In this document: positions 43,364 through 63,761 of the stretch, piece by piece
Layout: each line of letters begins with the position of its first letter
Position numbering within the stretch: the stretch's first letter is position 1
NCBI GenBank assembly: GCA_034211275.1
Contig: JAXHTF010000010.1
Location: 6,808 to 70,807 of the forward strand
Direction of reading: 5' to 3'
DNA from: Acidobacteriota bacterium
GTDB lineage: Bacteria > Acidobacteriota > Thermoanaerobaculia > Multivoradales > JAHZIX01
Length of the DNA: 64,000 nucleotides
Made by a program: the position numbers and the translations under genes
Notes under the pieces: model-generated
What the model was told of the DNA's origin: nothing
The model's input: the letters and a program-made list of their open reading frames with translations, nothing else
The model's database searches: none

Positions 43364-43500
43364 GATCAGCGTCCGCCTCTGACGCCTGCGAGAATCTTCA
43401 ACTCAGAACGGGCCCCAAAAAGCGACGAGCCCGCGATCGATCGCGGGCTCGGTAGCGCGGCCAGGTAAGGGGCTAGCCGACGGCGGAAGGTCCGCTGGAT

Positions 43501-44898
43501 TCAGCGGGTGCTGGTGCGGGACTCGAGGATCCGGTAGCCGTCGCCCGCATCCATGTGGTCGCCCAGCGGCAGAGAGCGGACGGTGGTCCACTCCTCGCCG
43601 GCGCTTTCCACGTAGAGCAGCTCGTCCTCGCCCTCCCAGGCGATGAGCACGTTCTGGCCGGACTCGGAAACGAAGATGGCGGAAGCCGGGTCCGCGAGGG
43701 CGGGCAGCGGCCGGTCGGTCACCACGCGCATGCTCAGGATGTGGCTCAGAGCCTGGGGTGGCGCGGCGTCCGGCGTGGGCACCTCGGTGATGTGGAAGTC
43801 GTCGGCGTTGTACAGGCGAGTGACCTCACCGCCGAAGAGGTTGGAGCCGATGTCGATGATGTTGCCGCGGATGGTGCCGGCGAAGGACTCCAGGGCGCCG
43901 GTCCACTCGCGGCCGATGTCGATGATGTTGCCGCGAATGCCGCCGCCCAGGAAGGAGACGTTCTGCTGGTTGAGGTTGCGGCCGATGTCGATGATGTTGC
44001 CGCGGATGGTACCGGCGAAGGCTTCCAGATCCCCACTATCGAACTTGAAGCCGCTGTCGAGAATGGTCTGCTCGACGCCGTCCGCCAGCAGCCCCAGCTC
44101 CGCCGGCAGCACCGTGATCTCCAGGGAAAGGAAGCGGCCGCTGGAGGCGTCGGTGAAGCCGATCACCACGGAGCGATGCTCCAGGCCCGAGTGCAGGGTG
44201 GGCATGCGGGCGAAGTCTTCCGTCACCGCCGCCAAGGGGCCGCCGTCGTCAACCATGTGGAAGTCGTTGAGGCGGAAGATCAAAGGCTCGGTGTTGGGGT
44301 AGGAGCCGTTGTCCAGCACGATGGGGGAGTACAGGACCTCGGTCTCGTCGGCGCCTTCCTCCCACCACACCAGGTGCAGCACCGCCCGGTGCAGGGACTG
44401 CGGCTCGCCATCCACATCCACGGTGTAGTTGTCGTGGGTGATGGCCAGCCGCGGCGAGCCCTTGAGGGCGAAGAAGTTGCTCATGATGACCAGCGGCTCG
44501 GACCAGGTCTCACCGTCGAAGCTGATCAGGTTGAGCATCCGGTGGATGACGTTGCGCCGGCTCTCCCACACCAGGAAGACGGTGCCGGAGCGATCTTCGA
44601 AGACCAGCGAGGACGAGCCTTCGAGATCCCCGAACGCGTCGTCGGTACCGGGTACCAGGAGTCGGCGGGTCTCAGCGCCGGGCTGGGCGATCTCCAGGGC
44701 CAGAACCGAGGCTTCCGCGGCGGCGCCGCTGCTCTGCGGGAAGAGCTCGCCGTAGGTTCCGGAGAACACCGAATAGAGCTCGCCTTCGGAGCCCAGGGCA
44801 ATCTGGCCGCGCTCCGCCGCCGGGGCGGCGGAGACGCCGGTAGCGCCGGCGAGGAGCAGGCCGATGAGAGCGAAAACGAAGAGGGAAGAAAAGCGCAC
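43501..44898 (-). CDS. secreted hypothetical protein, paralog A (internal GNIIDIG-type tandem repeats)
   Basis: GTG start 4 nt after the upstream stop. Signal peptide MRFSSLFVFALIGLLLAGATGVSA. About 35-40% identical to the product of 47814..49226 along its full length. Three 22/23-codon tandem repeats. Confidence 0.55.
   Translation of the reverse strand: MRFSSLFVFALIGLLLAGATGVSAAPAAERGQIALGSEGELYSVFSGTYGELFPQSSGAAAEASVLALEIAQPGAETRRLLVPGTDDAFGDLEGSSSLVFEDRSGTVFLVWESRRNVIHRMLNLISFDGETWSEPLVIMSNFFALKGSPRLAITHDNYTVDVDGEPQSLHRAVLHLVWWEEGADETEVLYSPIVLDNGSYPNTEPLIFRLNDFHMVDDGGPLAAVTEDFARMPTLHSGLEHRSVVIGFTDASSGRFLSLEITVLPAELGLLADGVEQTILDSGFKFDSGDLEAFAGTIRGNIIDIGRNLNQQNVSFLGGGIRGNIIDIGREWTGALESFAGTIRGNIIDIGSNLFGGEVTRLYNADDFHITEVPTPDAAPPQALSHILSMRVVTDRPLPALADPASAIFVSESGQNVLIAWEGEDELLYVESAGEEWTTVRSLPLGDHMDAGDGYRILESRTSTR
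43846..44046 (-). repeat. imperfect 66/69-bp tandem repeat x3 inside secreted paralog A (encodes the xGxIRGNIIDIGxN motif)
   Basis: Copies of GCCGATGTCGATGATGTTGCCGCG begin at 43846, 43912 and 43981. Confidence 0.7.
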
Positions 44899-44902
44899 TG
44901 GG

Positions 44903-45913
44903 TTAGGCCTTGATGTTGATCAGCGGGCGGATGTCCACCGCGAGCAGAAAATTGACGATCTCCGGCGAGTCCGGGTAGTACTCCCGTTGCAGCTCCAGGA
45001 GGTAGTCCCGGGCCGTTTCGGCGTCGCCGCTCAGATTAGCGGCTTCCCCGAGCAGGAAGAGGGCATATTTGATCGACTCGGAGTCGCTCACGCGATGGGC
45101 CAGGGCGAGAGCCCGGGTGCCATGGCGTAGGGCGTCGCGATGCCGACCGGCCTCGATGTGGGCGTAGCAGAGGCTGAGGTGCGGGTATGCCTGGAAGCCG
45201 CGGGCCTTCAGCCGGCGGAGCATGCGCAGGCCGCGGTAGAGCAGCTCGAAGCCCTCTTCCAGGCGGCCTTGGACGACTCGGCAGTAGCCAACGTTCTCCA
45301 GCAGAATGGCGCGCTGCACGCTGGGCATGGGCTCGAACAGGCGCAGAGCCACGTCGTACTCGGTGCAGGCTTCCTCGAAGTAGCTTTCCGCCATCAACAG
45401 GTTGCCGATGCGGTTGTGGCTGGAGGCGATCCAATCCGGCCGGCCCAGCAGCTCGGAGAGGTCCAGAGCGGTGCGGGCGTAGAACAGGCCCTTCTTGTAC
45501 TGCTTGGTCCGCTCGTGGATGCGGGCGATGTTGTAGGCGGCCAGACGGCTGTTCTCCAGATCCTTCCGGGCGGTGAGAATGCAGCGCAACTGCTGGAGCG
45601 GCTCCTGGGGATCCATGATCTCGATGGCCACGGCAGCACGGTTGCAGAAAGCCCGGTCCTGGAGTGTGCTGTCGCCGAGGCGGCGAGCGGTCTCCAAGGC
45701 CTCGTCGAAGAGCCGATAAGCCTCGCCGAAGTGGCCGCCGTTGAGGGCGTCCAGGCCAGCTTCACGGAGGCTTTCATAAACCTCGCGAGTGTCGCCGGCA
45801 ACCATCTCCGGATGCTCCAGCCCCGGCAGCTCGTCCGAGAGCAGGGGGTGTTGCGGTCGGCCCGAATTCGGGTGGACGGGCTCGTTGGCTTGCGGGAAGC
45901 TGACGACACTCAT
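44903..45913 (-). CDS. cytoplasmic TPR-like helical repeat protein, paralog A
   Basis: Start ATG overlaps the stop of the XRE gene (ATGA). No signal peptide. Helical repeats. Paralogous to 46837..47817 (shared C-terminus ...LLGEAA.L.GD...AR.Y...LQ..YYPD......L..VD.R...N.KA). Confidence 0.55.
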   Translation of the reverse strand: MSVVSFPQANEPVHPNSGRPQHPLLSDELPGLEHPEMVAGDTREVYESLREAGLDALNGGHFGEAYRLFDEALETARRLGDSTLQDRAFCNRAAVAIEIMDPQEPLQQLRCILTARKDLENSRLAAYNIARIHERTKQYKKGLFYARTALDLSELLGRPDWIASSHNRIGNLLMAESYFEEACTEYDVALRLFEPMPSVQRAILLENVGYCRVVQGRLEEGFELLYRGLRMLRRLKARGFQAYPHLSLCYAHIEAGRHRDALRHGTRALALAHRVSDSESIKYALFLLGEAANLSGDAETARDYLLELQREYYPDSPEIVNFLLAVDIRPLINIKA

Positions 45914-46305
45914 GCCTTTTGCTCCTTGCGGTCGGCCTCGCGGGGCGCCGCCGGCTCCGTGCCGTCGGTGAGGGCTTGGGCTCGCTTGAAGGCCACGAAC
46001 TCACTCACTTCCCGCTGGGCATCCTGGGGCAGGGAGTTGAATTGGTTGACCAGGTTGACGTCTCGAACGGAGAAGCTGTCCTGGGCCATCTCGTCGAAGA
46101 ATTCGCCGATGCCCATGCCGAACTGCGCCAGGATCTTGAACAGCGTGTCGAGGCTGACCCGATATTCGCCCTTCTCCATGCGGGAGAGGTCGGATTGCTG
46201 GATGCCGATTCGTCCGGCGAGCTCGGTCTGGGTCAGGCTGCGCTGTTTGCGCAGCTGACGAATCTTCTGACCGACGAGCTGTACCTGGCGGATTTTCTGG
46301 GTCAT
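45910..46305 (-). CDS. XRE family helix-turn-helix transcriptional regulator
   Basis: HTH QRSLTQTELAGRIGIQQSDLSRMEKG. Start set at ATG 46305 (AAGG SD). The track ORF extends to 46383. Confidence 0.7.
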   Translation of the reverse strand: MTQKIRQVQLVGQKIRQLRKQRSLTQTELAGRIGIQQSDLSRMEKGEYRVSLDTLFKILAQFGMGIGEFFDEMAQDSFSVRDVNLVNQFNSLPQDAQREVSEFVAFKRAQALTDGTEPAAPREADRKEQKA

Positions 46306-46836
46306 AGCGTTCTGCCTTCGCTCAAGACTTCCATGCTCGAAACGTTCGCGCTCAGTTCCGGTGCCCGGGGGCGTGGAGTTCACTGAGCGGATAGACTTAG
46401 AGAGTACGGAGTTTAAGGGCGCGCGGGCTATGTGTCAACCCCATAGCCCCGTCTTCCCGCCCACCGGCGCTCCGGTCGTGCTCAACGAAGCTTACTGCGC
46501 CTGATAAACTAGAGCTAGTCGGGAGGAGTTTGCGGAAGAATCGTTGACACTCTCCGAGATGCTGTCGTAGCATGAAGTGAGTCATCGAGTTTCGCAGCAA
46601 TTGACAGCCTCGCGACGAGCGGGAGAGTATTGAGAGCTGCTGTGCTATGCGGCGCCGCAATGTTTCGGCCGGAGCTCGACAGGAATGGACGAGTCTCGCA
46701 GGCAGATTTTTTCGGCAGCCCATCGAGGATCCACTTTCTCGAGCAGCCTAAAAAGAGCGGAGAGATCCGTCTACGGGATTCCAAAAACCGGGAATTCCAA
46801 GAGCACAGCCCTCTCGGGTGAAGAAAGCTGAGGCCC

Positions 46837-47817
46837 ATGCCCCAATCAACAGAGCCCCGATCGACCGAACGCCAGGATGCCGAGCTCCAAGCCAGTAAGC
46901 CCAGCATGCAGGCCAACGACGCCATGAGCCCGCCAAGCCACTACGAGGCGATCAAGGAGCAGGCTCTCGACTGCATGCGCGAAGGGCGCCTGCGCGAGGC
47001 CTTGAGCCTCTTCGACCGGGCATTGGCGCTGGCGGGGGAGCTCGGAGATTCCAATTTGGTGGATCGGGCCCTGTGCAACCGCTGTCGAGTCGCCATCGAG
47101 CTGGGCAGCAGCCGGCGAGAGCTCGGCGAGCTGGGCAAGGTGTTGTTGCGCAATCGGGACCCGGAGATTCGCTTCCTCGCCGCCTACAACCTGACCCGGG
47201 CTCATCTGCTGCGCAAAGACGCCGACAAGGCGTTGTTCTATGGCGGCGTCGCCCGGCAAGAGGGCGAGCGGGCTGGCAAGGCCGGATTGGTCTCGGCGGC
47301 ACACAACGGCATTGGGCTGGCGTTGCTCGCCTCGAGCTACTTCGAGCAGGCGGAGGCGGAGTTCGAACAGGCTTTGGGGATGTTGCCGGAAGATCATCGC
47401 CGCCGGCGCGCAGTCATCCTCGACAACTACGGTTACTGCAAGATCATCCGCGGGTCGGTGCCGGAAGGCTTCCAGGCGCTCTTCGAGAGCCTGCGCACCC
47501 TCTGCCGCACCGGCGAGTTGTGGTTCGAGATGATCACCCGAGTCAGCCTTTGCTTCGCCTATCTGGAAGTGGACAAATATCGGGCGGCCTTGCGCCACGG
47601 GCGCCGGGCGCTGGAGATGGCGGAGCGCTTCGAGGACCGTTCGACCCAGAAGTCGGCCCTCTTCTTGCTGGGAGAGGCGGCCAAGCTCGCCGGCGATGAC
47701 TTCGGAGCTCGCCGATACTTTTCCCGGCTTCAGGAGGTCTACTACCCTGACGCTGATTATCTGCCCGACATGCTGATGGTGGTGGACGCCCGCAGCATGG
47801 TGAATCTGAAGGCATGA
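46837..47817 (+). CDS. cytoplasmic TPR-like helical repeat protein, paralog B
   Basis: Paralog of 44903..45913. Its stop overlaps the start of the downstream secreted paralog (ATGA at 47814-47817). Confidence 0.55.
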   Translation: MPQSTEPRSTERQDAELQASKPSMQANDAMSPPSHYEAIKEQALDCMREGRLREALSLFDRALALAGELGDSNLVDRALCNRCRVAIELGSSRRELGELGKVLLRNRDPEIRFLAAYNLTRAHLLRKDADKALFYGGVARQEGERAGKAGLVSAAHNGIGLALLASSYFEQAEAEFEQALGMLPEDHRRRRAVILDNYGYCKIIRGSVPEGFQALFESLRTLCRTGELWFEMITRVSLCFAYLEVDKYRAALRHGRRALEMAERFEDRSTQKSALFLLGEAAKLAGDDFGARRYFSRLQEVYYPDADYLPDMLMVVDARSMVNLKA

Positions 47818-49226
47818 AGATGTTCAAGCGCTACCCCCTTCTGACTACGCTTTTCGCCGTCGGCCTCGCCCTCGTGGTTTGCGGGACGGCTCTCGCCGCC
47901 GAGTCCACCGCGGTGCTCGACCACCAGGGGACTCTCTACACCCTGCTCAGCGGTCGCCGTGGCGATCTCTTCACCGGGGTCAAAGGTCCGGCGGCCAATG
48001 CGCCGGTGCTCGCCCTGGAGATTCGTCAGCCGGGAGAGACTCCCGAGGACACGGAAATTCGTCGGCTGCTGGTGGCGGACACCGGTGATGCCGCGCAGGA
48101 AGAATCCGCCAACCTGGTGCTGGAAGAGGCGGCCGGCACGGTCTATGTCGTCTGGTCCCGAATCCCTGCCGAAGGCCCGGTCGAGCTGCGGGTCTCCGGA
48201 TTGGTAGAGGATCAGTGGTCCGAGCCGGTGAGCTTGGAGGCCATGGGCGACCTGACCGTAGCGCCGCAGCTCTTGGTCACCCGGGATCGTATGGCCAAGC
48301 CGGACCCCGACACTGGAGTGCTGCGGAGCACCGCCCGCACCGTTTTGCATTTGCTGTGGGCCGAGGATGCCGCCGAGGGGGAGCGAGTGCTGTACTCGCC
48401 GCTGGTGCTGGAAGACGGCGCCTACGTCGGCGAGGCGCCGCGGATGGTGCTCAACGACTTCGACCCCACCACGACGCCGGGGGACAAGGGCGCGACCTCC
48501 ATCAGCGCTCCGACCCTCGCCGCCGGAGTCGACAATCAATCGGTGATCGCCGGCTTCGTCAACATGGCCACCGGTCGCCAGCTGAGCATCGAGCTGCGCA
48601 TGCTGCCCTTTGCCCTGGGCACCTTGGCCCGCGACGTTCGCGACTTCATCCTCGACGAAGGGGTCGGCATCGTCGGTCCCGGAAGCGTTGAGTCCCTCGC
48701 CGGCGGCGTCGGCGGCATGATCATCGAGACGGGCCGTGAGTTCCATCCCGGCGTACGCTTCTACTTCGCCTCGGTGGCGCAGGAGGCGGTGCTCGAAGAG
48801 GCCCTGGCCAGTGACGGCCCCGGCGTCGGATTGCAGAGCTTGGCCGGGGGAGTCGGCGGCATGATCATCGAGGTCGGCTCGCGGTTCTTCGGCACCGATG
48901 GCCTGGACCGCAACTTCGTCGCCTCGCGCCTTAGCCTGGTGGAGATCGGCAGCGCCGTCGAGCTCGATCCGGACACTCTGGTCAATCACCTCTTGCGGGT
49001 CTACGTGGTCTCCGACCGCGAAGCTCCGGACGTCGGCGGCGACGCCGCTTTGTTGGTGTCGGAGGATGGCGAGGAGGGCATGGTGGCCTGGCCCGAGGGC
49101 GAGGAGCTGCGCTATCGCGAGACCAGCGGTGCGATTTGGTCGGACGTGCGGGCCGTGCCTCTGGACGAGGGCTTCGATCTCGAGCAGGCCCGCCAGCTGC
49201 TCCGGCAACGTCTCCAGCGGCGCTGA
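47814..49226 (+). CDS. secreted hypothetical protein, paralog B
   Basis: Signal peptide MKMFKRYPLLTTLFAVGLALVVCGTALA. Shares conserved blocks with 43501..44898 (VLALEI.QPG, VLHL.W.E, VLYSP.VL..G.Y). Two GGVGGMIIE.G repeats. Confidence 0.55.
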   Translation: MKMFKRYPLLTTLFAVGLALVVCGTALAAESTAVLDHQGTLYTLLSGRRGDLFTGVKGPAANAPVLALEIRQPGETPEDTEIRRLLVADTGDAAQEESANLVLEEAAGTVYVVWSRIPAEGPVELRVSGLVEDQWSEPVSLEAMGDLTVAPQLLVTRDRMAKPDPDTGVLRSTARTVLHLLWAEDAAEGERVLYSPLVLEDGAYVGEAPRMVLNDFDPTTTPGDKGATSISAPTLAAGVDNQSVIAGFVNMATGRQLSIELRMLPFALGTLARDVRDFILDEGVGIVGPGSVESLAGGVGGMIIETGREFHPGVRFYFASVAQEAVLEEALASDGPGVGLQSLAGGVGGMIIEVGSRFFGTDGLDRNFVASRLSLVEIGSAVELDPDTLVNHLLRVYVVSDREAPDVGGDAALLVSEDGEEGMVAWPEGEELRYRETSGAIWSDVRAVPLDEGFDLEQARQLLRQRLQRR

Positions 49227-49407
49227 GCAACGCCCGCCCGGCTAGTCTCGTCCAGCTAGCTTGATCTGCTAGCCTCCCCTGACTCGCGCCTCGAGGGGGC
49301 GGTAGCGGTTGAACCATTCGTCCGAGCCAGCGGTTTTTTATCGGCCGCTGGCTCTTCTGCTTTCAGCCCGCGGCGCCCGGCGGTAGAGACTCCGGAGCGG
49401 CGGCGGT

Positions 49408-50199
49408 GTGCCTCGGGAGCCATCGGTCTTGACCCAACACCTCTTTCTTCTCCGCGAGCTCGTGCGTCGGGACTTCCGTGGCCGGTACGCTGGTAGCGTC
49501 CTGGGCTTTTTGTGGTCCTTCGTGCAGCCTCTCTGGCAGCTCCTCCTCTTCAGCTTCATCTTCGGTAGCCTGATGAAGATCTCGCCGCTGGGAGAACGCA
49601 CCGACAATTTCGGCGTGTTTCTCTTCTGCGGGCTGCTGCCCTGGACGGCCTTCCACGAGGGCATTGTCCGCGCGTCCACGGCGATCACCGAGAACGCCAG
49701 CCTGGTCAAGAAGCTCAACTTCCCCTCCGAGCTGCTGATCCTGGCGGTGGCGTTGGGGGCTTTGCTCCACGAAGCCATCGCCGCGGCGATCTTCGTCGTG
49801 GTCCTGGTGCTGATGGGTGAGCTGGTGCTCACGGGCCTGCCGCTGCTGTTGGTGGCCCTGCCGCTGCAGCTGGCGCTGACCCTCGGCCTGGGGCTCCTCC
49901 TGTCGGCGGTCCACGTCTTTTTCCGCGACACCGCGCAGGTGGTCACCATGGTGTTCACCGGCTGGTTCTACTTCACCCCCATCGTCTATCCCATGAGCCT
50001 GGTGCCCGAGCGCTTCTTGCCCTGGATCGAGGCCAATCCCCTGACCGCCTTGGTGGCCCTGTATCGGGCTGCCTTCCTCGGCGGCCCGCCGGTGGACCCT
50101 TCGGGAGTGCTGCTGCTGGCGCTTTGGTCGGTGGCTTCGGCTGCTCTCGGCTTATTTCTCTTCTTGCGCTTGAAGCCCAGCTTCGCCGACGAAATCTAG
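49408..50199 (+). CDS. ABC-2 type exporter permease (Wzm/KpsM/TagG-like)
   Basis: 263 aa, 6 TM segments. N-terminal RELVRRDFRGRYAGSVLGFLW motif typical of ABC-2 polysaccharide/teichoic acid export permeases. GTG start. Confidence 0.75.
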   Translation: MPREPSVLTQHLFLLRELVRRDFRGRYAGSVLGFLWSFVQPLWQLLLFSFIFGSLMKISPLGERTDNFGVFLFCGLLPWTAFHEGIVRASTAITENASLVKKLNFPSELLILAVALGALLHEAIAAAIFVVVLVLMGELVLTGLPLLLVALPLQLALTLGLGLLLSAVHVFFRDTAQVVTMVFTGWFYFTPIVYPMSLVPERFLPWIEANPLTALVALYRAAFLGGPPVDPSGVLLLALWSVASAALGLFLFLRLKPSFADEI

Positions 50200-50283: not shown

Positions 50284-53133
50284 TCAGTTGTCGGTGACGC
50301 TGGTGGTCCAGCCGCCCAAGGTCCCTGCCTCGAAACCGTCGGTAAAGACCACCGTCGCGCTGCCGCTGACGTTCACCGTCAAGCTGTCGCTGGCGGCGCC
50401 GCAGGCGCTGTTGGAGACCTCAACGGTCTTGGCGCCGTTGGAGAACCAAGCCACCGTCAACTGCGAGGTGCTGGAGGATCCGACGCCTCCGGAGGTGGTC
50501 CAGGTCCAGCCGTCGGCGTTGGGGGTGCAGTTGGTGGTGGAGGCGTTGAAGGTCACCGCGTGCCCCCTGTCGGCGGTCGTGGGGCCGGTGACGGTCACCG
50601 ACGGCTCCGGGGCTCCTCCGACGTTGATGATCGGATGGCCCTCGTAGATGTCCGAGGCGGAGTTGCGGCGGACCCGCAGCCGCGGGTGGAAGGTGCCGGT
50701 GGAGGTGTAGGTGAAGAGAGTCACCGGCGCGGGATTGTCTTCGTCCTCGAAGCTGCCGTCGCCGTCCCAGTCATAGTCCCAGAAATCCGGCTCGCCGATG
50801 CTCTCGTCGATGAAGGTGATGGGGACGTTGACGTCGGCGAAGCAAGTTCCGGCGGCGCAGAAGAGCGAGGCGCGGAAATCGGCGATGACCGGCTCCGCGT
50901 TGCTCGCGTCCACCGCCAAGATGGCGCTGGTGCGGGGCACCTCGGCGCAGTTGCGCACCATCACCTGGACGTCGTAGGTGGCGGCGACGTCATAGGTGTG
51001 AACCGGATTCGGGCCGTCGACGGGGTCGCTGGTCCAGCCCTCGAAGCCGTCGTTGTTGGGGCCGCCGCCGGGGTTGTCGCCGAAGCTCCAATTCCACTCC
51101 GTCGCTCCGGACACGCCGGCGTGGAATTGCACCGTGCCGGTGGCCGGAGGATCCGGCTGGCCGTCGTAGGTGGGCGTGAAGGCGCCGTTGGCGGGCAGCG
51201 GATCCAGTGGATTCAGGGTCACCGCCGCGGAGGTCGCGGTGTCGATGCCGGCGGAGTTGGTGACCGTGACCTCGGCGGTGTAGGTGGTGCCGGTGGTCTG
51301 CCCCGGCGTCGAGGTCCACACGAAGGGGTTGACGTTGCCGCCGGAGGCCACCACGCCCCCGCCGTTCTGGCTGATCTGCCAGCTGAACGTCAGCGGCGGT
51401 TGCCCGGTGACATTCTGGGCGGTGAAGGTCACCGGCTGGCAGAGCAGTGCCGGGTTGGGCGATGAGGCGACGCCGGTGACCACCGGCTCCGGTTCCAAGA
51501 CCGTCAGATTCTTCTGGGTGCTGTTGCTGCCGGCTCCGTTGCTGGCTTGGAGAGCGACGGTCTTGCTGCCGGCGCCGTCAAAGGCGATGTTGGCCGGGTT
51601 CTGACTGGTCGAGCCGCCGGGATTGCCGTCGGGGAGGAAGTCCCAATCCCAAGCGGTCGGTCCGCCGGTGCTGGAGTCGAAGAAGTCCACCTGGGTGCCG
51701 GGATAGATCTGCGCCGGGGTCCAGGTGAAGTCCGGGTTCGGCGGCGCGCCGCCGGTGCGCCGGTGGACGTCGAAGATGGCATGGCCTGCGCGGAAAAAAT
51801 AGTCGCCGGAGAACTTGCCCACTCGCGGCGCGACCCGATTGAAGCCGTGGACTCCGTTCTGACGGTAATACCAGCCCCAATAGCTCACCGGTGCGCCGTT
51901 GATGACCACGGTGCCCTGGGGGCTGATATCCGTCGGCGAAGAGGGATTGCGAACGTCGTAGAGCCATTCCTTCTGGTTGCCGCTCTGGCAATAGCCGCTG
52001 TCGCCGAAATAGAGGAACGGAATATCGCCGGTGGAGCGGCTGAAGGTCACCAGCGGGTCGCCCACCGGATCCATGCTCCGGGACCACATGGGAGAGCCGG
52101 GAGAGCAGAAGCCATCGGTGATGCAGGAGACATCGTAGATGCGCGCCTGGGTGTCTGTGCGAGCGGCCAGGTAGTAGTCGGCGCCGTCCTGCCAGAGCGC
52201 GACACCGTAGATGCTGTCGCCGCTCAAAGCGTCCATCACCATCGAGGGCTGGGACGGGTTGGAGACGTCCCAGATCTCGAAGCCGCGGGGCGAGAAGGTG
52301 GAGCTGAGAACGATGAAGTCGCCGGCGCCGTCAAGGTAATTGGCGCGGATGCGCGAGCCGATCTTGCCGAGGTAGATCCCCGGGCAGAAGGTGGTGCCGG
52401 GCTGGTTCTCGTTGCAGCGGCCGGTGAGGTTCATGGCGGCGGTCATGTCGTAAGCGAAGACGCCACCCTCGCGGTTGGCGGCGACGAAGACATAGTCGCG
52501 GGAGTCGATGGTGGTGGTGTAGACGGCCCGCACCTCGCGGCTGGCGAGGGTGCCGGTGTCCTGGTACTTGATCCTCGGAGTGTCTTTGATGCTGGTATCT
52601 ACGATGGCGACGCCGAGGCCATAGACGCCGCCGATGGCGACGCGGTCCGCCTTGCCGGGCGGAGCGTCGATGTCGGTGAAGACCGAGAAGGCGTGAGCGT
52701 CGGGAGTCCAGTTGAACGGCAGGCTGTTGATGCCCGAATCGAGGAGAGCGGAGGGGGAGCCGGGATTGAAGCGGGCATCCCAAATCTGGAAGCGCATGCT
52801 GGTGGCAGCAAAGACGAAATTCTGCTCTACATCCAGCGACAGCCAGTAGGGGTTCAGCTCGAAGCTGCCCACGCCGTTGAAGTCGGTGGAGTCGCGATTG
52901 CCCGGCAGGGTCGTTGTGGAGGCGGGCTCTAGGCCGTTCCACAGCGCCGACGGGACCGGTACGGCGGGAGTGGCAAAATCACAGTAATTGCAGGTGGTGT
53001 CGCAGTTCTGAGCCACCGCCGGCAGCGCTGCCGAAGCCGTCAGAATCAAGACTGCAGCCAGAGTCAGCCGTCGTCGGGAGGCCGGCCGGGCTTTGGGTAC
53101 AGCGCATGCAAAGAGTTTCGAGGTCCAGCACAT
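50284..53133 (-). CDS. giant secreted protein: N-terminal LVIVD-repeat beta-propeller followed by multiple PKD domains
   Basis: Start set at ATG 53133 (AGGAG 6 nt upstream, signal peptide ...LTLAAVLILTASAALPAVA). LVIVD-type blades (GVAIVDTS, GVFAYDMT, FEIWDVSNPSQP, ARIYDVS, WLYDVRNPSSP). PKD signatures (WDWDF.DG, WNWSFGDN, HTY). Paralogous over about 800 aa to 57561..62324. Confidence 0.65.
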   Translation of the reverse strand: MCWTSKLFACAVPKARPASRRRLTLAAVLILTASAALPAVAQNCDTTCNYCDFATPAVPVPSALWNGLEPASTTTLPGNRDSTDFNGVGSFELNPYWLSLDVEQNFVFAATSMRFQIWDARFNPGSPSALLDSGINSLPFNWTPDAHAFSVFTDIDAPPGKADRVAIGGVYGLGVAIVDTSIKDTPRIKYQDTGTLASREVRAVYTTTIDSRDYVFVAANREGGVFAYDMTAAMNLTGRCNENQPGTTFCPGIYLGKIGSRIRANYLDGAGDFIVLSSTFSPRGFEIWDVSNPSQPSMVMDALSGDSIYGVALWQDGADYYLAARTDTQARIYDVSCITDGFCSPGSPMWSRSMDPVGDPLVTFSRSTGDIPFLYFGDSGYCQSGNQKEWLYDVRNPSSPTDISPQGTVVINGAPVSYWGWYYRQNGVHGFNRVAPRVGKFSGDYFFRAGHAIFDVHRRTGGAPPNPDFTWTPAQIYPGTQVDFFDSSTGGPTAWDWDFLPDGNPGGSTSQNPANIAFDGAGSKTVALQASNGAGSNSTQKNLTVLEPEPVVTGVASSPNPALLCQPVTFTAQNVTGQPPLTFSWQISQNGGGVVASGGNVNPFVWTSTPGQTTGTTYTAEVTVTNSAGIDTATSAAVTLNPLDPLPANGAFTPTYDGQPDPPATGTVQFHAGVSGATEWNWSFGDNPGGGPNNDGFEGWTSDPVDGPNPVHTYDVAATYDVQVMVRNCAEVPRTSAILAVDASNAEPVIADFRASLFCAAGTCFADVNVPITFIDESIGEPDFWDYDWDGDGSFEDEDNPAPVTLFTYTSTGTFHPRLRVRRNSASDIYEGHPIINVGGAPEPSVTVTGPTTADRGHAVTFNASTTNCTPNADGWTWTTSGGVGSSSTSQLTVAWFSNGAKTVEVSNSACGAASDSLTVNVSGSATVVFTDGFEAGTLGGWTTSVTDN

Positions 53134-53531
53134 AAAGACTCCTTCGATCAGCCATGGGGGGGCGATCTGCGGAGGTCGCGACAAGCGCGCGTTCCAGTTC
53201 ATTCAAGCAAGTCGATCCCGCGCACCGGGAGGAATTTATGGATTATGCCATTATCCTATTGCTCGGCGCAATCCTGTCTTCTTCGTTCTTCAGCCGCCAA
53301 CGGGGGCCGCCACTCTCGACGCACAGTGAAGGCGGAGAGGCGACGGTGCTTGACCTCGAAGCTGCTTCTGTTACCATTCGCCCTCTGGAGGCGGCGGCTT
53401 CAAGCCCATCGCTGCTGCCGGAGACCTCGCCGAAGCGAATATCGCAAAACAGCATAGCTCCGCAGACCATCCAGCCACCTCAGCTTTCAATGCCCGACGC
53501 GCTTCGGGCCCTCCAGCAAGGGAGACGATCC

Positions 53532-55310
53532 ATGATTCCAGCCCTCTCGACTTGGCCGCTGCGCGGCCGAATCGCCGTCGTGGCTTTCCTGCTCAGTGCG
53601 CTCTTCGCCCTGCCCCTGGCGCTTCCCGCGGAAGGCCAAATGGGGATGCAGCGGGGAGAGGACCCCATGGACGACCTCGGCTCCTTGGAGCCGGAGGACG
53701 GGAAATGGCTTACCGACGACGAGGGTGAGGAGTACTTCGTCAAGAAGTTGCCGAAGAAAGAGGGGACCTACCAGTACTACGGAGAGAACCAGGTGCGCTA
53801 CAAGCATTGGTTCATCTTCGATCTGGTCAAAGAAGATGACGAGAACCTCTACATCAAGATCTACAAGCCCCGCGAGCACCGCCCTGGGTTCACCCGAGAA
53901 GAGGTGGAGGCCCGGCGAGCCAAGGAGGAAGCGGCCGTCGCCGCCAGCTACCAGGTCGAGGTGGGGGAGAGCGACCGCTTGACCTACATCCCCTTCGATC
54001 AGGGGTTGCCGCGCCGGGGCATGTGGCGCAACGGTTTCGACATCGCCGATGTCAACGGCGACGGTCATCTGGACATCGTTCACGGCCCGGCCCGCAAGGG
54101 GGCTCCGGTGCCCCGCATCTTCCTCGGGGACGGCGAGGGCAATTGGAAGCTCTGGCGCGAGGCCCGCTATCCCCGGGCGCCCTACGACTACGGTGACGCC
54201 GCTGCTGCCGATTTCGATGGTGACGGCCTGACCGACCTGGCTTTCGGTTTCCACCTGCGGGGGCTGCTGGCACTTCGCCAGAGCAGCCCCGGTGTCTTCG
54301 AGGTGTGGAGCGAGGGCCTCGATCTGCAGGTTCCCGGCGCTGGCTCCGACGCTTCCGGCTTTTCCACTAGGGCCATCGAGCTCGCGGACTGGAACGGCGA
54401 CGGTCGTATCGACATCTTGGCCGCGGGGGAGGGCCCCCGGCCCGCCGGGCAAAAAGGCGACAAGACCACCGGCATGGTCTCTTCCCAGGCCTTTGGGGTC
54501 GCCGTCTATCTCAATCACGGGGACGGCACCTGGGAGCGCCTCGGCGCCGACAAGAAGACCTCCGGGCTGTTCGGGGACTACCTCGCCTATGGCGACGTCA
54601 ACGCCGACGGGCGCCTGGACCTGGTGACCTCTTCGAATCTCTTGGGGCGTCAGAACATCCTGCACCTCGGGAGCGAGGACGGAGAGTGGGAGCGCTACAC
54701 GGTGGATCAAATACGCCCCAACGCCTATCTCCAGTCCGTGGGGATTGCCGACTTCGACGGCGACGGTCGGGACGACATCGCCATCGGTTACGCCAGCTGG
54801 CAGCTGAAATTCTGGCGCACCGGCCTCGACGTGCTGTTCTCTCGCCCCGACGATACCTGGGAGCGGCGCACTCTCTTCCTCGAGGAGAGTCGGCTGAGCC
54901 TATGGGCGCTCGGTACCGGTGATGTCGACGGAGACGAGAACGCGGACATCGTCGTGTCCACCGGTGACGGCGGGGTGATGGTGTTCTTGGGCACCGGCAA
55001 GGGCACCTTTACGCGGGAAGCGGCCACTTCTTTGCACAGCGCCCGCGGCTGCCGGGGTTACGCAGTGCGCTTGGCGGATCTCAATGGCGACGGGAAGGAC
55101 GAAATCGTGGCGGCCTTCGCCGACGAGGGCTCGGCTCTGCCCATGACGGAGTTCCCCGTCACCTGCACCAGCGCCGGAGCGATCATGGCTTGGCGTACCG
55201 AATCGTCCCAGGCCGAGAAGGCTGCGGCTGACTCTGCGCAAACCGAGGCTTCGCAAAAAGATCTGGGAGCGAGCGAAGGCCTTGACATGTCGACTGAGGA
55301 AGGCCTATAG
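53532..55310 (+). CDS. secreted FG-GAP/VCBS-repeat (integrin-alpha-like beta-propeller) protein
   Basis: Seven Ca-binding repeat motifs (DVNGDGHLD, DFDGDGLTD, DWNGDGRID, DVNADGRLD, DFDGDGRDD, DVDGDENAD, DLNGDGKDE). Signal peptide after ATG 53532 (AGGGAGA SD). An alternative upstream ATG lies at 53238. Confidence 0.65.
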   Translation: MIPALSTWPLRGRIAVVAFLLSALFALPLALPAEGQMGMQRGEDPMDDLGSLEPEDGKWLTDDEGEEYFVKKLPKKEGTYQYYGENQVRYKHWFIFDLVKEDDENLYIKIYKPREHRPGFTREEVEARRAKEEAAVAASYQVEVGESDRLTYIPFDQGLPRRGMWRNGFDIADVNGDGHLDIVHGPARKGAPVPRIFLGDGEGNWKLWREARYPRAPYDYGDAAAADFDGDGLTDLAFGFHLRGLLALRQSSPGVFEVWSEGLDLQVPGAGSDASGFSTRAIELADWNGDGRIDILAAGEGPRPAGQKGDKTTGMVSSQAFGVAVYLNHGDGTWERLGADKKTSGLFGDYLAYGDVNADGRLDLVTSSNLLGRQNILHLGSEDGEWERYTVDQIRPNAYLQSVGIADFDGDGRDDIAIGYASWQLKFWRTGLDVLFSRPDDTWERRTLFLEESRLSLWALGTGDVDGDENADIVVSTGDGGVMVFLGTGKGTFTREAATSLHSARGCRGYAVRLADLNGDGKDEIVAAFADEGSALPMTEFPVTCTSAGAIMAWRTESSQAEKAAADSAQTEASQKDLGASEGLDMSTEEGL

Positions 55311-55597
55311 TTCCATGAAGTAGCCGACTTAACTGCGGGATTCCAATAGGTGCTTGTTTTTACCTGGTGCCCGCGGGAGAGGCTGCTGACCAAGAAGATC
55401 ACTAGACCTTTTAGGTTTTCGAGTTTTTGACCGGGAGGTGATGCGCCCTTAGTCTTTGAGAGGAGAAGGAGATTCACTGCGAGATTAGGTTCGCCGATGG
55501 GCATAGTGTCCGTCCGGTGGCCGTAAGACTTTCGTAGTGCGTTTTTACCGGGTCCCGTCGTTGGGACCAAAAAAAATTGAATTGGAGACTGTTAGTA

Positions 55598-56920
55598 ATG
55601 AGGAAGTTCATCGCCTCTATCGCCATCGTCGGGCTTCTCGTGCTCGGCGGCTCGGCGTTCGCCGAGATCGGCGCCATCGACTCCGTGCCTGCGGCTACCC
55701 TGCTGTTGCCGTACTTCGAGGTCGCTCCGGCTGCCGGTGTCACCACCCTGTTCTCGATCAACAACGCTTCGGCCGCCCCGGTCCTGGCCCACGTCACCCT
55801 GTGGACCGACCTTTCCCGGCCTACGCTTGACTTCGACGTCTACCTCACCGGTTTCGACGTCGTGACCATCAACCTGGGCGACCTGTTCACCACCGGCGCG
55901 ATCCCGCAGACCGGCCCGAACTTCGACCCGGGCGACGACGCCATCTCCCCGAACGCTCCGGGTGAGTTCTCCTTCGCGGATGTCAACTTCCCGGCTTGCG
56001 CTTTCCCGCTGCCGGCCAACATCCCGGGTTCGCTGCTCACCTACATCCAGAACCTGCACTCCGGCGGTGCGGCTCCGGCCGGCTTCGCCAACAGCGGTCT
56101 CTGCGGTGGTGTGGACTACGGTGACGGCGTCTACCGCGGTTACGTGACCGTCGATGTCGCCAACGCCTGCTCCCTCGAGTTCCCGGGCAGCCCCGGTTAC
56201 TTCGTGAACGGCGGTCAGGGCATCGCCGGCAACGCCAACGTCCTTTGGGGCGACTACTTCTGGGTCGACGTGCCGAACGCGTTCGCCCAGGGTGATTCCC
56301 TCGTCCACATCGAGGCCACCGACACCGGCTTCTGGACGCCTGGCGACTACACCTTCTACGGCCGTTACGTCGGCTACGACGGCAGCGACAACCGCGAGCC
56401 GCTGGCGACCACCTGGGCCGCCCGCTACTTCGCCGGTACCGTCGGTGCCTTCGATGACGACACTGACGTCGTCTGCTGGCGCGACACCGGTCGCGACGAG
56501 AGCGGCTTCTTCACTTGCGGCTCCGCCGTTGCTGGCGCCGTGTCCGTGGATCCGTTCCCGCTGTCCCAGAACCAGATCGTCATCTTCGACGAGCAGGAGA
56601 ACCCGGTTGTCGTGGAGGGCTCGCCCTTCTCGCCGCCGCCGACCCTGGAAGGCGTCCTTCCCTGCCCCTACGAGGCGACTCGGGCTGACGCCAACGACTT
56701 CGGTTCGATCTTCGACTTCGGTTGGTTCTACATGAACCTCAACACCACGACCGGTAGCGTCGTCGATCCGATCAAGCAGTCCTTCGTGACCACCGTGCAC
56801 AGCGCCTCCGGCCTGTTCAGCGTTGGTTACCAGGCGGTTCACCTCGACAGCGCGCTGGCCAAGACCTTCACGGTCACCACCGCTCCGAGCGACGTGATCC
56901 TGCCGCTGGGTGTCGAGTAA
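55598..56920 (+). CDS. secreted hypothetical protein, candidate abundant cell-surface (S-layer-like) protein
   Basis: Signal peptide MRKFIASIAIVGLLVLGGSAFA. Preceded by about 280 bp of AT-rich sequence and followed by a strong intrinsic terminator. The N-terminal region (LLLPYFEV..TLFSINNAS..HVTLWTD) is related to two segments in the C-terminal part of 57561..62324. Confidence 0.55.
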   Translation: MRKFIASIAIVGLLVLGGSAFAEIGAIDSVPAATLLLPYFEVAPAAGVTTLFSINNASAAPVLAHVTLWTDLSRPTLDFDVYLTGFDVVTINLGDLFTTGAIPQTGPNFDPGDDAISPNAPGEFSFADVNFPACAFPLPANIPGSLLTYIQNLHSGGAAPAGFANSGLCGGVDYGDGVYRGYVTVDVANACSLEFPGSPGYFVNGGQGIAGNANVLWGDYFWVDVPNAFAQGDSLVHIEATDTGFWTPGDYTFYGRYVGYDGSDNREPLATTWAARYFAGTVGAFDDDTDVVCWRDTGRDESGFFTCGSAVAGAVSVDPFPLSQNQIVIFDEQENPVVVEGSPFSPPPTLEGVLPCPYEATRADANDFGSIFDFGWFYMNLNTTTGSVVDPIKQSFVTTVHSASGLFSVGYQAVHLDSALAKTFTVTTAPSDVILPLGVE

Positions 56921-56954
56921 GACAAACCCAGTTAGGTAAAGCCTGACAAGAAAA

Positions 56955-56988
56955 GGGGACGGATCCTTCGGGGTCCGTCCCCTTTTGT
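56955..56988 (+). terminator. rho-independent terminator (GGGGACGGAtCC-TTCG-GGgTCCGTCCCC followed by TTTT)
   Basis: GC-rich hairpin with a 4-nt loop and T-tract, 35 nt downstream of the stop at 56920. Confidence 0.6.
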
Positions 56989-57560
56989 CTGTTTCGGCCC
57001 CACCGCGGCCGACTTCTCAGCGAGCTTTCTGTACCCGCACTTTGGGCGATTCCTGCTCTTCCATTGCTCGCTCCGATACCTCTCCGCCAAGAATCCGATC
57101 TCCCGGCCTGTTCCCTTTGCCCTCGGTCGTCCGCATCGCCTCCCTCGTTACTTGGTAAAAGGCGCCAATTTCTTCCAGCGAAGATCTCCCGCCGGCAGCA
57201 CTTTGTTGATACGGTTATCAACTATCCCGCGAGAGGGCAGATCAAAAATAGCCAAGACGGGGCTGGACTGGGCGCTTTAAGCTGTGGCAGCATAGAGCCC
57301 TCCCGCAAGCGGCGACGAGCTTCGGTTCGTCAGAAAGCCCAGGAGCCCCCTAGGTCAGGCTTTGCAGAGGGGGTTCCGCCCCTTCGCGAGATTCCGGGCC
57401 CCGCTTGCGTGAATCGGTCGATTTTGCTATAAAAGCATCTCGACTCTTGAAGAGCCTACTGTCCGCTGTAGCCATCATGATGCCGAGCGTCATGTCGCCT
57501 TCTTTTCATCGTCTCTTCTCGATCTGCTCGCGTTTTCGATCCACAGGAGCCAAGTTGGTT

Positions 57561-62324
<4,764 letters not shown>

Positions 62325-62444: not shown

Positions 62445-63761
62445 ATGAAACAAGTTGTGGTCGAAGCCAGCGGGCTCAGCAAGACCTACCGTGTCTACCA
62501 GCGGCCGTGGGATCGCCTGGTGGAAGCCTTGTTGCGCCGACCCCGTCACAAAGAGTTCCGCTCTCTCCAAGACATCGACTTGCAGCTGGCAGCGGGAGAC
62601 TCGCTGGGCATCATCGGCGAGAACGGCGCCGGCAAGAGCACCTTGCTCAAGATTCTCGCCGGAGTCGCCGCTCCCACCAACGGCGATGTCCAGGTACAGG
62701 GCAAGGTCGCCTCGATCCTGGAGCTGGCCTCCGGCTTCCACCCGGAATTCACCGGCCGCCAGAACATTCAGCTCAACGCTGCCATGCTGGGTCTGAGCCA
62801 GAAAGAGGTGGAGGCCAAGACTCCCAACATCATCGCCTTCAGCGAGCTCGGGGACTTCATCGACCAGCCCGTCAAGGTGTACTCCACCGGCATGGCGATG
62901 CGCCTGGGTTTTGCCATCGCGACCCAGGTGGAGCCGGACGTGCTGATCATCGACGAGGCCCTGTCGGTGGGGGACGGCTACTTCCAGAAGAAGTGCGTCG
63001 ATCGGCTGATGGAGTTCACCCGCGGCGGTGGCACCCTACTCTTCTGCTCCCATGCGATGTACTACGTCACTTCCTTCTGTCAGCGAGCCCTGTGGCTCAA
63101 GGACGGCAAGATCGCGGCCCTGGGGCCGGTGGAGGAGGTGGTGCGCAGATATGAGAACTTCCTCATGCGCAAGCAGCCGCAGGACCCGGTGGAGGTGGCC
63201 GAGCGGCCTGCTGGGCCGGCTCGCATCGTGGAAGCCAGGCTGCTCGATGACGGGCAGGCCGGCGGAACGGCGCCGGTCCTCTACCGGCATCTCCAGCCCC
63301 TGAGTTTGGAAGTGAGCTGGGAGACCACCGAGCCCCAGCGAGCCTTCCACCTGGGCGTGGGCATCGACCGCACTGACAGCGTACAGGTAGCCGCTCTCTC
63401 GACCTACCACGATGGATTGGAGCCTTTCCGGGGCCGCCATCGGTATTCTGTGCGGCTGGACATTCCGCAGCTTCCGATGCTCAAAGGGGAGTACTCCCTG
63501 TATGTCTTCCTGATGGACGAGGAGGCGCTTCACCCCTACGACTCCAAGGTCGTCCACGGCGCCTTCGAAGTGGCCACGGAGGGCTATCGCTTCGGCCTGA
63601 TCCACATCCCCCATCGCTGGCAAACCGAGGAGAGTTCGGGCTCCGTGGTGACGCTGTCCGCCCCTGTGGAAGCGCCTTCTGCGGAGACGGCCGCCTTCGA
63701 GGCCGGCTCCCTGGAAGCTGGCGGGGCGGCTCTCTCGGCGAGCTCAAGGAGTCGCTGGTAG
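62445..63761 (+). CDS. ABC transporter ATP-binding protein (Wzt/KpsT/TagH-like) with a C-terminal extension
   Basis: Walker A GENGAGKST, signature YSTGMAMRLGFA, Walker B VLIIDEAL, H-loop. A C-terminal ~190-aa extra domain as in Wzt-type O-antigen exporters. It is the partner of the permease at 49408..50199 despite 12 kb of separation. Confidence 0.8.
   Translation: MKQVVVEASGLSKTYRVYQRPWDRLVEALLRRPRHKEFRSLQDIDLQLAAGDSLGIIGENGAGKSTLLKILAGVAAPTNGDVQVQGKVASILELASGFHPEFTGRQNIQLNAAMLGLSQKEVEAKTPNIIAFSELGDFIDQPVKVYSTGMAMRLGFAIATQVEPDVLIIDEALSVGDGYFQKKCVDRLMEFTRGGGTLLFCSHAMYYVTSFCQRALWLKDGKIAALGPVEEVVRRYENFLMRKQPQDPVEVAERPAGPARIVEARLLDDGQAGGTAPVLYRHLQPLSLEVSWETTEPQRAFHLGVGIDRTDSVQVAALSTYHDGLEPFRGRHRYSVRLDIPQLPMLKGEYSLYVFLMDEEALHPYDSKVVHGAFEVATEGYRFGLIHIPHRWQTEESSGSVVTLSAPVEAPSAETAAFEAGSLEAGGAALSASSRSRW

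Follow-up and report, generated by a model that had tools for sequence, protein, structure and literature searches.

In several bacteria, surface layers (S-layers) are anchored through a glycan, as with RsaA and the O-antigen in Caulobacter, SlpA with CWB2 domains and PSII in Clostridioides difficile, and SLH domains and a pyruvylated secondary cell-wall polymer in Bacillus. At the level of the mRNA, the cryIIIA leader of Bacillus thuringiensis reportedly contains a stabilizer called STAB-SD, described by Agaisse and Lereclus in 1996 (cited in PMC7509114). Acidobacteriota are among the most abundant bacteria in soils and sediments, and their cell surface is almost uncharacterized. Here, we describe a gene for a 440-amino-acid (aa) secreted protein within a 64-kb stretch of DNA from an Acidobacteriota bacterium of the class Thermoanaerobaculia (the whole stretch is referred to as the window), where it lies between the genes for the two halves of a Wzm/Wzt glycan exporter and next to a gene for a giant secreted protein. 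We tentatively favor the reading that the 440-aa protein has a structural role on the cell surface, as a subunit of a coat or S-layer-like structure or as a module for docking at the surface.

The DUF1608 family of Methanosarcina is, by analogy, a close functional precedent. DUF1608 is lineage restricted and is present once or twice per protein. A genome has about 10 paralogues, among which the S-layer protein (SlmA1/MA0829) is a highly expressed one whose gene has a conserved leader and a downstream hairpin (PMC3361143). The gene studied here and the signals around it are as follows.

55282..55311, + strand: sigma-70-type promoter, TTGACA-18 nt-TATAGT, matching 11 of 12 consensus positions
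55318..55597, + strand: putative 5' untranslated leader of ~280 nt, its start placed from the position of the promoter
55434..55442, + strand: leader element GGAGGTGAT, a perfect complement of the 3' end of 16S rRNA (anti-Shine-Dalgarno)
55458..55472, + strand: second purine-rich, Shine-Dalgarno-like block GAGAGGAGAAGGAGA, 3' of GGAGGTGAT
55550..55568, + strand: leader hairpin GGGTCCCGTCGTTGGGACC, then a run of eight A, as read from the sequence
55584..55588, + strand: Shine-Dalgarno sequence GGAGA, 9 nt before the ATG
55598..56920, + strand: coding sequence of the 440-aa protein, with the signal peptide at 55598..55663 and a mature part of 418 aa
56951..56998, + strand: intrinsic terminator with a 16-bp stem, a TTCG loop, and the tract TTTTGTCTGTTT; the hairpin is at 56951..56986

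A mechanical list of open reading frames (ORFs) places the start of the gene at a TTG codon at 55577. Judged from the sequence, the ATG at 55598 is the real start, because it lies 9 nt past the GGAGA and because every homologue opens with MRKF, MKKF, or MKKT at the equivalent codon. The ORF from 55598 to 56920 (+) gives a 440-aa precursor, the first 22 residues of which form a Sec-type signal peptide (MRKFIASIAIVGLLVLGGSAFA, followed by EIG, with cleavage between AFA and E). The mature product (418 aa, 44 kDa) has an isoelectric point (pI) of 4.05 and contains 47 Asp and Glu versus 10 Lys and Arg, with only 1 Met, 6 Cys, and 2 Lys. When these properties are set beside the secreted, acidic, and sulfur-poor character of S-layer proteins, the signal peptide, the pI, and the single Met agree, yet there are six conserved Cys. 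Two near-invariant N-x-S/T sequons are also present, NNAS (N55 to S58; 55760..55771) and NLNTT (N380 to T384; 56735..56749); they lack the D/E at −2 seen in PglB-type sites, and glycosyltransferase genes lie around the gene.

Genomic context was compared across 76 loci of GTDB species representatives, and cis elements were counted in 25 syntenic loci. The −10 box of the promoter overlaps the stop codon of the upstream gene, which encodes an FG-GAP repeat protein. The pattern TTGACA-N16-18-TATAGT has a single match in the 64-kb window (55282..55311) where 0.00 are expected by chance, with the caveat that consensus matches alone do not show function. Both boxes are invariant in five close relatives, the flanks of which have diverged, and the promoter pattern is kept in 22 of the 25 syntenic loci, 258 to 407 nt 5' of the ATG. 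The length of the leader is conserved as well (260 to 400 nt in relatives), and several relatives have hairpins of differing sequence at a similar leader position, as seen by eye. The GC content of 55311..55597 is 0.498, compared with 0.667 for the whole window, which ranks it 6th of 63,714 overlapping 287-nt windows; the minimum (55340..55626) overlaps it. Neither the leader nor the terminator region has a match in Rfam.

Translation and termination signals are conserved as well. The ribosome-binding site, (A)GGAGA(T)TGTC..ATG, is found in all 25 loci, as is a strong GC hairpin with a T-tract immediately 3' of the stop codon. In the window, 56951..56998 has the GC-rich hairpin and the T-tract 3' of the stop that define an intrinsic terminator, with 9 GC pairs in the 16-bp stem and a free energy of about −38.8 kcal/mol, and only about four strong hairpin-plus-T sites, including the one at 56951..56986, occur in the 64 kb. 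The other three are at 35792..35836 (+), which follows a 1757-aa gene ending at 35729; at 49324..49354 (+), which follows an uncharacterized 470-aa gene; and at 43426..43451 (−), which follows an uncharacterized 465-aa gene. The codon bias of the 440-aa gene is the strongest and most expression-like in the window, with an effective number of codons of 31.4 at a third-position GC content of 0.86. GGT makes up 44% of its Gly codons, and no other gene in the window exceeds 27%; usage reaches 100% for TTC, TAC, and AAC and 78% for CCG.

Because the conserved promoter, leader, ribosome-binding site, and terminator occur together with this codon bias, the comparison supports the view that the gene is a monocistronic, highly expressed unit embedded in a larger cluster. 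The preliminary description of this DNA had proposed a gene at 55598..56920, preceded by the most AT-rich stretch in the window, ended by a textbook intrinsic terminator unusual in this DNA, and encoding a highly expressed secreted or surface protein. The ORF, its 440 aa, and the N termini of homologues confirm the gene; the upstream stretch is, in effect, the most AT-rich; the long stem, the T-tract, and the rarity of such sites agree with what was said of the terminator; and the predicted high expression is well supported by the comparison of expression signals and codons.

The leader element GGAGGTGAT sits 164 nt 5' of the ATG in the window. It is found in 22 of the 25 syntenic loci, 96 to 210 nt before the ATG, and is invariant across the 20 aligned leaders, in which a CTTTnAnn motif precedes it; the window contains two matches to it versus 0.47 expected by chance. 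A GAGGAGAG(T)GGAGA block follows 10 to 25 nt past it in most loci. There is no conserved start codon at a working distance behind GGAGGTGAT, and most loci lack any. An upstream ORF translated from this site was therefore rejected, since the short frames there are not conserved and most loci have no start codon to open one. What is found, a complement of 16S rRNA within a 5' untranslated region (UTR) with no start at initiation distance, corresponds to the sequence definition of STAB-SD. By analogy, GGAGGTGAT may act as an mRNA stabilizer that binds ribosomes in a long leader, or it might instead bind a regulator or pair with another RNA.

The protein belongs to a large family. At E<=1e-3, it is matched by more than 4,488 clusters at 90% identity; at 50% identity, there are 2,334 clusters at this threshold, 1,094 of which match at E<=1e-30, and all of the matches are annotated as "hypothetical." Searches of Pfam, NCBIfam, PHROGs, and PDB sequences gave no match to the 440-aa protein or the family, and no anchoring domain (SLH, CWB2, or similar) was found by Pfam or NCBIfam in the protein and 49 family members. 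The scan for loci among GTDB species representatives gave at least 567, of which the best 80 were examined; all of these are in metagenome-assembled genomes (MAGs) of Thermoanaerobaculia, Holophagae, or unclassified Acidobacteriota, and several family loci per genome are common. The closest relative (84 to 85% identity) is from "Acidobacteria bacterium HKST-UBA06." Identity is ~50% across classes, and 49 sequences share 47 invariant columns and six conserved Cys; the invariant residues include D28, H65, W69, D87, C134, D186, C191, E239, and D264, along with R266, E267, W294, R295, D331, E334, W376, and Q394. The AlphaFold model has a predicted local distance difference test score (pLDDT) of 83 and a predicted template modeling score (pTM) of 0.86, and a Foldseek search with it against PDB and BFVD gave nothing at E<=1e-3.

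Family members occur not only as free proteins. Those of ~765 aa are whole-module tandem duplications, and on large proteins the module (~390 aa) is mostly at the extreme C terminus, with some N-terminal fusions. The fusion partners are PKD, DUF11, CARDB, CarboxypepD_reg, Calx-beta, Big_5/Big_9, cadherin-like, P_proprotein, and BACON domains, all of them extracellular architectures. An outer-membrane beta-barrel or autotransporter was also considered as an identity for the family and was rejected, given the absence of barrel matches, the conserved Cys and charged residues, and the N-terminal fusions.

The neighborhood of the gene contains the following features of the conserved cluster.

49408..50199, + strand: Wzm-type ABC-2 permease, the left bracket of the cluster
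53154..55310, + strand: secreted protein with FG-GAP/VCBS repeats (Pfam), always 5' of the family gene in synteny
62445..63761, + strand: Wzt-type ABC ATPase, closing the cluster on the right, with a glycan-binding Wzt_C domain

Approximately 40 of the 76 loci show a collinear cluster with almost fixed spacing, in the order M23 peptidase, GHMP kinase, a trio of genes on the opposite strand, Wzm, FG-GAP protein, family gene (in one or two copies), giant, and Wzt. The trio encodes an uncharacterized secreted protein of ~470 aa, a tetratricopeptide repeat (TPR) protein, and an XRE-type helix-turn-helix (HTH) protein. Downstream of Wzt, which carries the Wzt_C domain, are glycosyltransferases and a radical-SAM/SPASM protein. 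The window has the same arrangement, to which another TPR/470-aa pair and, on the minus strand, a paralogue of the giant are added. The remaining loci have tandem arrays of two to five paralogues in unrelated neighborhoods.

Several observations concern individual neighbors. The FG-GAP protein probably starts near 53532, because its homologues have 575 to 609 aa and an internal Met there is followed by a signal-peptide-like segment; the ORF from 53154 to 53531 is an N-terminal extension of ~126 codons that is absent from the homologues. At 43501..49226, two divergent pairs of genes for a TPR protein and a ~470-aa secreted protein flank the XRE-type HTH gene, and the trio is conserved in the cluster across classes. 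The 470-aa proteins contain two to three copies of AGG(V/I)xG(M/N)II(E/D)xG and have no Pfam or NCBIfam match; the idea that they are multispanning oligosaccharyltransferases or ligases was rejected, as they have an N-terminal signal or anchor only. A role for the family as partner of a TonB-dependent receptor was considered as well, and an adjacent CarboxypepD_reg outer-membrane protein (OMP) was found in only 1 of the 76 loci. At this locus (L087, 5326..11269, the same as L015), a tandem family pair lies directly behind a gene for a 994-aa protein with CarboxypepD_reg and an OMP beta-barrel (TonB-dependent-like).

The next gene downstream of the family gene encodes the giant.

57561..62324, + strand: giant secreted protein with an N-terminal domain, six PKD domains, and C-terminal sandwiches
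60903..62318, + strand: four tandem DUF5719-like beta-sandwiches of the giant, with boundaries from a repeat hidden Markov model (HMM)

The true start of the giant is likely M53 of the ORF that opens at 57405 (nt 57561), because of its alignment to P0129, an orthologue of 1,897 aa. This start leaves a relatively low-GC intergenic stretch of ~575 nt past the terminator (56999..57560; GC 0.53 to 0.56), which possibly contains a promoter and leader of its own. The N-terminal domain was not recognized by Pfam and looks propeller-like by eye only. Glycine runs of 11 to 12 residues between PKD domains (60276..60311, aa 959 to 969; 60582..60617, aa 1060 to 1071) look like flexible linkers, and P0129 has shorter, mixed linkers there. 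The minus-strand gene at 50284..53202 encodes a 972-aa secreted, truncated paralogue of the giant, which has the same NCDTTCNYC N-terminal domain as the giant and PKD repeats but lacks the sandwiches at the C terminus. Its last residues, ..DGFEAGTLGGWT, resemble the ..DGFESGNFxxWS motif with which double-module family members terminate.

The C-terminal ~470 aa of the giant match Pfam DUF5719 with 27.8 bits against a gathering threshold of 26.2 (E=1.8e-6), and the homologues P0126 and P0127 match it too. The four sandwiches (aa 1167 to 1283, 1293 to 1402, 1405 to 1527, and 1532 to 1638) each have the strand (E) and helix (H) order E-E-E-E-E-H-E-E-E in an AlphaFold model with a pLDDT of 83.8, and Foldseek finds that complement MG domains, RbmA, and TM1070 resemble them. 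In orthologous giants, this region can be replaced by the family module. P0129 is 42% identical to the window giant over residues 56 to 1164 (E=0), and P0134 (1,833 aa) is 35% identical over residues 98 to 1059; each then carries two family modules, with domain E-values of 2e-89 to 2e-104. Module 1 of P0129 begins 3 residues past a conserved ..V(E/D)GDPLG junction, where the sandwiches of the window giant begin. P0134 is encoded in the canonical cluster, directly behind a stand-alone family gene (locus L008). Among the 40 syntenic giants, 24 (including that of the window) end in four DUF5719-like sandwiches, and the others end in two family modules or in neither (as at L004).

The shared junction at which orthologous giants bear family modules supports the view that giant and family protein are functionally linked and work together. 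It further suggests that the family module and the DUF5719-like region can stand in for each other in function. The modules borne by giants are only 37 to 45% identical to the free copies, so the fusion is old; for the same reason, an origin of these modules by recent local fusion was rejected.

These results are the basis of the structural cell-surface reading, which is favored because secretion and extreme acidity coincide with a high-expression cassette, tandem paralogues, and module duplication and because the module is reused as a terminal domain on giants and keeps a fixed place between wzm and wzt. The 440-aa protein would be the stand-alone form of a ~390-aa extracellular module, secreted through Sec and abundantly made. 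It would be retained on the cell surface along with the glycan that the flanking Wzm/Wzt cluster makes and exports, and adhesin-like giants bearing the module, including orthologues of the neighboring giant, would dock into or onto the same layer; the window giant would attach via its DUF5719-like sandwiches instead. Expression would be driven by the cassette as a whole: a near-consensus sigma-70 promoter, a ~280-nt leader in which GGAGGTGAT and a hairpin stabilize the mRNA, a strong ribosome-binding site, optimized codons, and the terminator. The gene and its signal peptide, the size and distribution of the family, the synteny, the conserved cis elements, and the fusions of the module are observed; high abundance, surface location, the lattice or docking function, dependence on the glycan, and stabilization by the leader are the parts of this scheme that we infer.

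Several observations weigh against such a role. All of the homologues at the best 80 loci are from uncultured MAGs. Conservation is unusually high for a surface lattice (~50% identity between classes; 47 columns invariant among 49 sequences), and the many invariant Asp, Glu, His, Arg, and Trp residues, together with the six conserved Cys, are more like those of an enzyme or ligand-binding protein. The protein matched none of the known anchoring domains, and the cluster showed neither an oligosaccharyltransferase nor a ligase. Finally, the giant in the window bears DUF5719-like sandwiches, which have no detectable sequence relation to the module, in place of the module itself, so docking through a shared module cannot apply literally here.

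The conserved residues bring up the alternative that survives best, although we consider it rather unlikely: a secreted protein that binds or processes the Wzm/Wzt polymer (a lectin, hydrolase, lyase, or transglycosylase), with the fusions acting as catalytic or binding heads. Invariant Asp, Glu, His, Arg, Trp, and Tyr lie on predicted beta-strands (GYxTxD, LWGDY, HIE, DxREPL, WRD, and FDExE), the conserved Cys are of a disulfide type, and the association with a cluster for Wzm/Wzt and glycosyltransferases is invariant. The core of the model is a beta-sandwich with TM1070 and ASRT as its best structural neighbors, from a superfamily that has been proposed to bind small molecules or sugars. However, there is no CAZy-type Pfam match and no significant structural neighbor, and the expression cassette, the codon bias, and the terminator are more what one would expect of a structural protein needed in stoichiometric amounts than of an enzyme. 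The tandem arrays of two to five paralogues and the duplications of the whole module also argue against this alternative.

The preliminary description had also claimed that the N-terminal region of the protein is recognizably related to the C terminus of the giant, the two sharing a novel, uncharacterized module that could mediate coassembly. On this account, which seems unlikely, the N-terminal half of the protein and the C-terminal repeats of the giant are divergent copies of one ancestral sandwich. The claimed relationship fails formal alignment statistics, which had been named as the outcome that would count against it. In BLASTP, the best E-value between the 440-aa protein and the C-terminal 474 aa of the giant is 4.7, and hhalign of the family profile (alignment A1, 49 sequences) against that of the giant C terminus (A2, 9 sequences) gives E=0.1 with a probability of 0.56%. 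Against a 34-repeat profile, E is 0.12, and against an 85-repeat profile, built after a further database search, it is 0.14; over these comparisons (E=0.10 to 0.14), the probability stays below 1%, even with 85 repeats. The repeat HMM has no match to the 440-aa protein, and neither that protein nor any of the 49 family members matches DUF5719, even at E<=1. Nor is the C terminus of the giant novel, given that it passes the Pfam cutoff for DUF5719.

Structural comparison leaves this account more room. The model of the family protein opens with the order E-E-E-E-E-H, as the giant sandwiches do, before an insertion of ~80 residues and further strands, and E-E-E is also common to both; the insignificant hhalign alignments share the register noted earlier (TTLFSINN with STLFVHNP); and orthologous giants have one or the other kind of domain at an equivalent site. 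The best compact-domain match of both models in Foldseek is TM1070 (PDB 1nc7), with a probability of 1.00 and template modeling (TM) scores of 0.72 to 0.73. For the giant C terminus, E is 3e-3 and TM is 0.72; for the 440-aa model, the alignment is gapped, TM (target) is 0.73, and E is only 0.024, and beta-sandwiches of such strand order are common. Thus, a shared sandwich fold class is plausible on the basis of the models, but homology is not established. Of the proposed coupling of the two proteins through a common module, the coupling gains support in that orthologous giants bear the family module, whereas the route by sequence, through the window giant's own C terminus, is unsupported.

A further alternative, that the protein is a subunit of a fiber or pilus-like polymer built by strand exchange, with the giant and the FG-GAP protein at its tip or base, is very unlikely. 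The mature N-terminal strand is conserved from the cleavage site on (EIGAIDxVPAATLLLPYFEV), and both the tandem paralogues and the strong expression signals would fit such a polymer, but the contexts examined contained no gene for an usher, a chaperone, a sortase, or the assembly of type IV or type V pili, and the compact 44-kDa globular model (pTM 0.86) is unlike known pilins and has no pilin match in Foldseek. Least probable of all is that the protein is unremarkable, periplasmic or secreted and moderately abundant, and that its promoter, leader, and terminator features have no special meaning: consensus matches by themselves are indeed no evidence of function, but promoter, leader element, ribosome-binding site, and terminator are kept across 22 to 25 species-level genomes in which the flanks diverge, and the codon bias is the strongest in the window.

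The structural cell-surface reading can be extended to a more specific scheme, which is possible but, taken as a whole, somewhat doubtful: a subunit or docking module of a hitherto unrecognized type of bacterial surface layer, with a new fold, specific to Thermoanaerobaculia and Holophagae and tied to the Wzm/Wzt glycan, which giants reuse as an anchor, with DUF5719-like sandwiches as the alternative anchor and the mRNA boosted by a ribosome "decoy" in the leader. The family would be a candidate for the major envelope protein of two whole classes, because it has thousands of unnamed members without a structural relative, the expression cassette, a place between the exporter halves, and a reuse on giants. 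This would have a bearing on adhesion, on interactions with phages and predators, and on the binding of metals and minerals, and the protein could be used as a marker antigen for uncultured lineages or to follow them by proteomics. For expression engineering in Acidobacteria, the conserved promoter and leader would offer useful parts, and the exchange of module and DUF5719-like sandwiches in orthologous giants hints, in a way that can be tested, at what DUF5719 does.

An abundant secreted surface protein with its own expression cassette beside a glycan cluster is a kind of system that is already known. The family, its fold, the cluster, the exchange between module and DUF5719, and the leader element appear to be undescribed, and a literature search for S-layers in Thermoanaerobaculia or Holophaga and for the relevant locus tags found nothing relevant. 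As in the DUF1608 family, a secreted domain of unknown fold is restricted to a lineage, present in one or two copies per protein, and rich in paralogues, with high conservation within the lineage, and a copy that is highly expressed there, and predicted to be so here, has an untranslated leader that is conserved and a hairpin downstream (PMC3361143). The two families have no sequence relationship; DUF1608 proteins are archaeal and have a C-terminal transmembrane anchor, whereas the protein described here has no recognized anchor. Proteomics demonstrated the S-layer function in the DUF1608 family, which for the present protein is a proposal.

The glycan-anchored S-layers resemble this system in that an acidic secreted protein, probably abundant here, has a structural gene in or next to a polysaccharide cluster (here Wzm/Wzt and glycosyltransferases) and in that paralogues and large proteins reuse its module. 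In contrast to them, the protein lacks SLH, CWB2, and RsaA-like repeats, has a Sec signal peptide rather than type I secretion, and has six Cys and an unusually high conservation; glycan binding is putative here. Two structural comparisons are more distant. The four sandwiches of the giant, assigned to DUF5719 (PF18986), share their strand order with the N-terminal half of the 440-aa protein, but the 440-aa family has no match to DUF5719 and the profile-profile comparison is insignificant. TM1070 and ASRT (PDB 1nc7 and 2ii7) are the best compact structural neighbors of both models, but the match to the 440-aa model covers only ~116 of 418 residues, split by the ~80-residue insertion, and TM1070 and ASRT are small cytoplasmic tetramers.

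The comparison with STAB-SD concerns the mRNA. STAB-SD comes from work on Firmicutes, in which it blocks the nuclease RNase J, whereas the present leader is from Acidobacteriota and a stabilizing role is proposed for it by analogy. In both cases, a Shine-Dalgarno-like sequence lies deep within a long 5' UTR, far from start codons, and in cryIIIA the gene downstream of such an element encodes a massively produced protein, as the present gene is predicted to do. If the likeness is real, GGAGGTGAT would carry the STAB-SD principle beyond Firmicutes.

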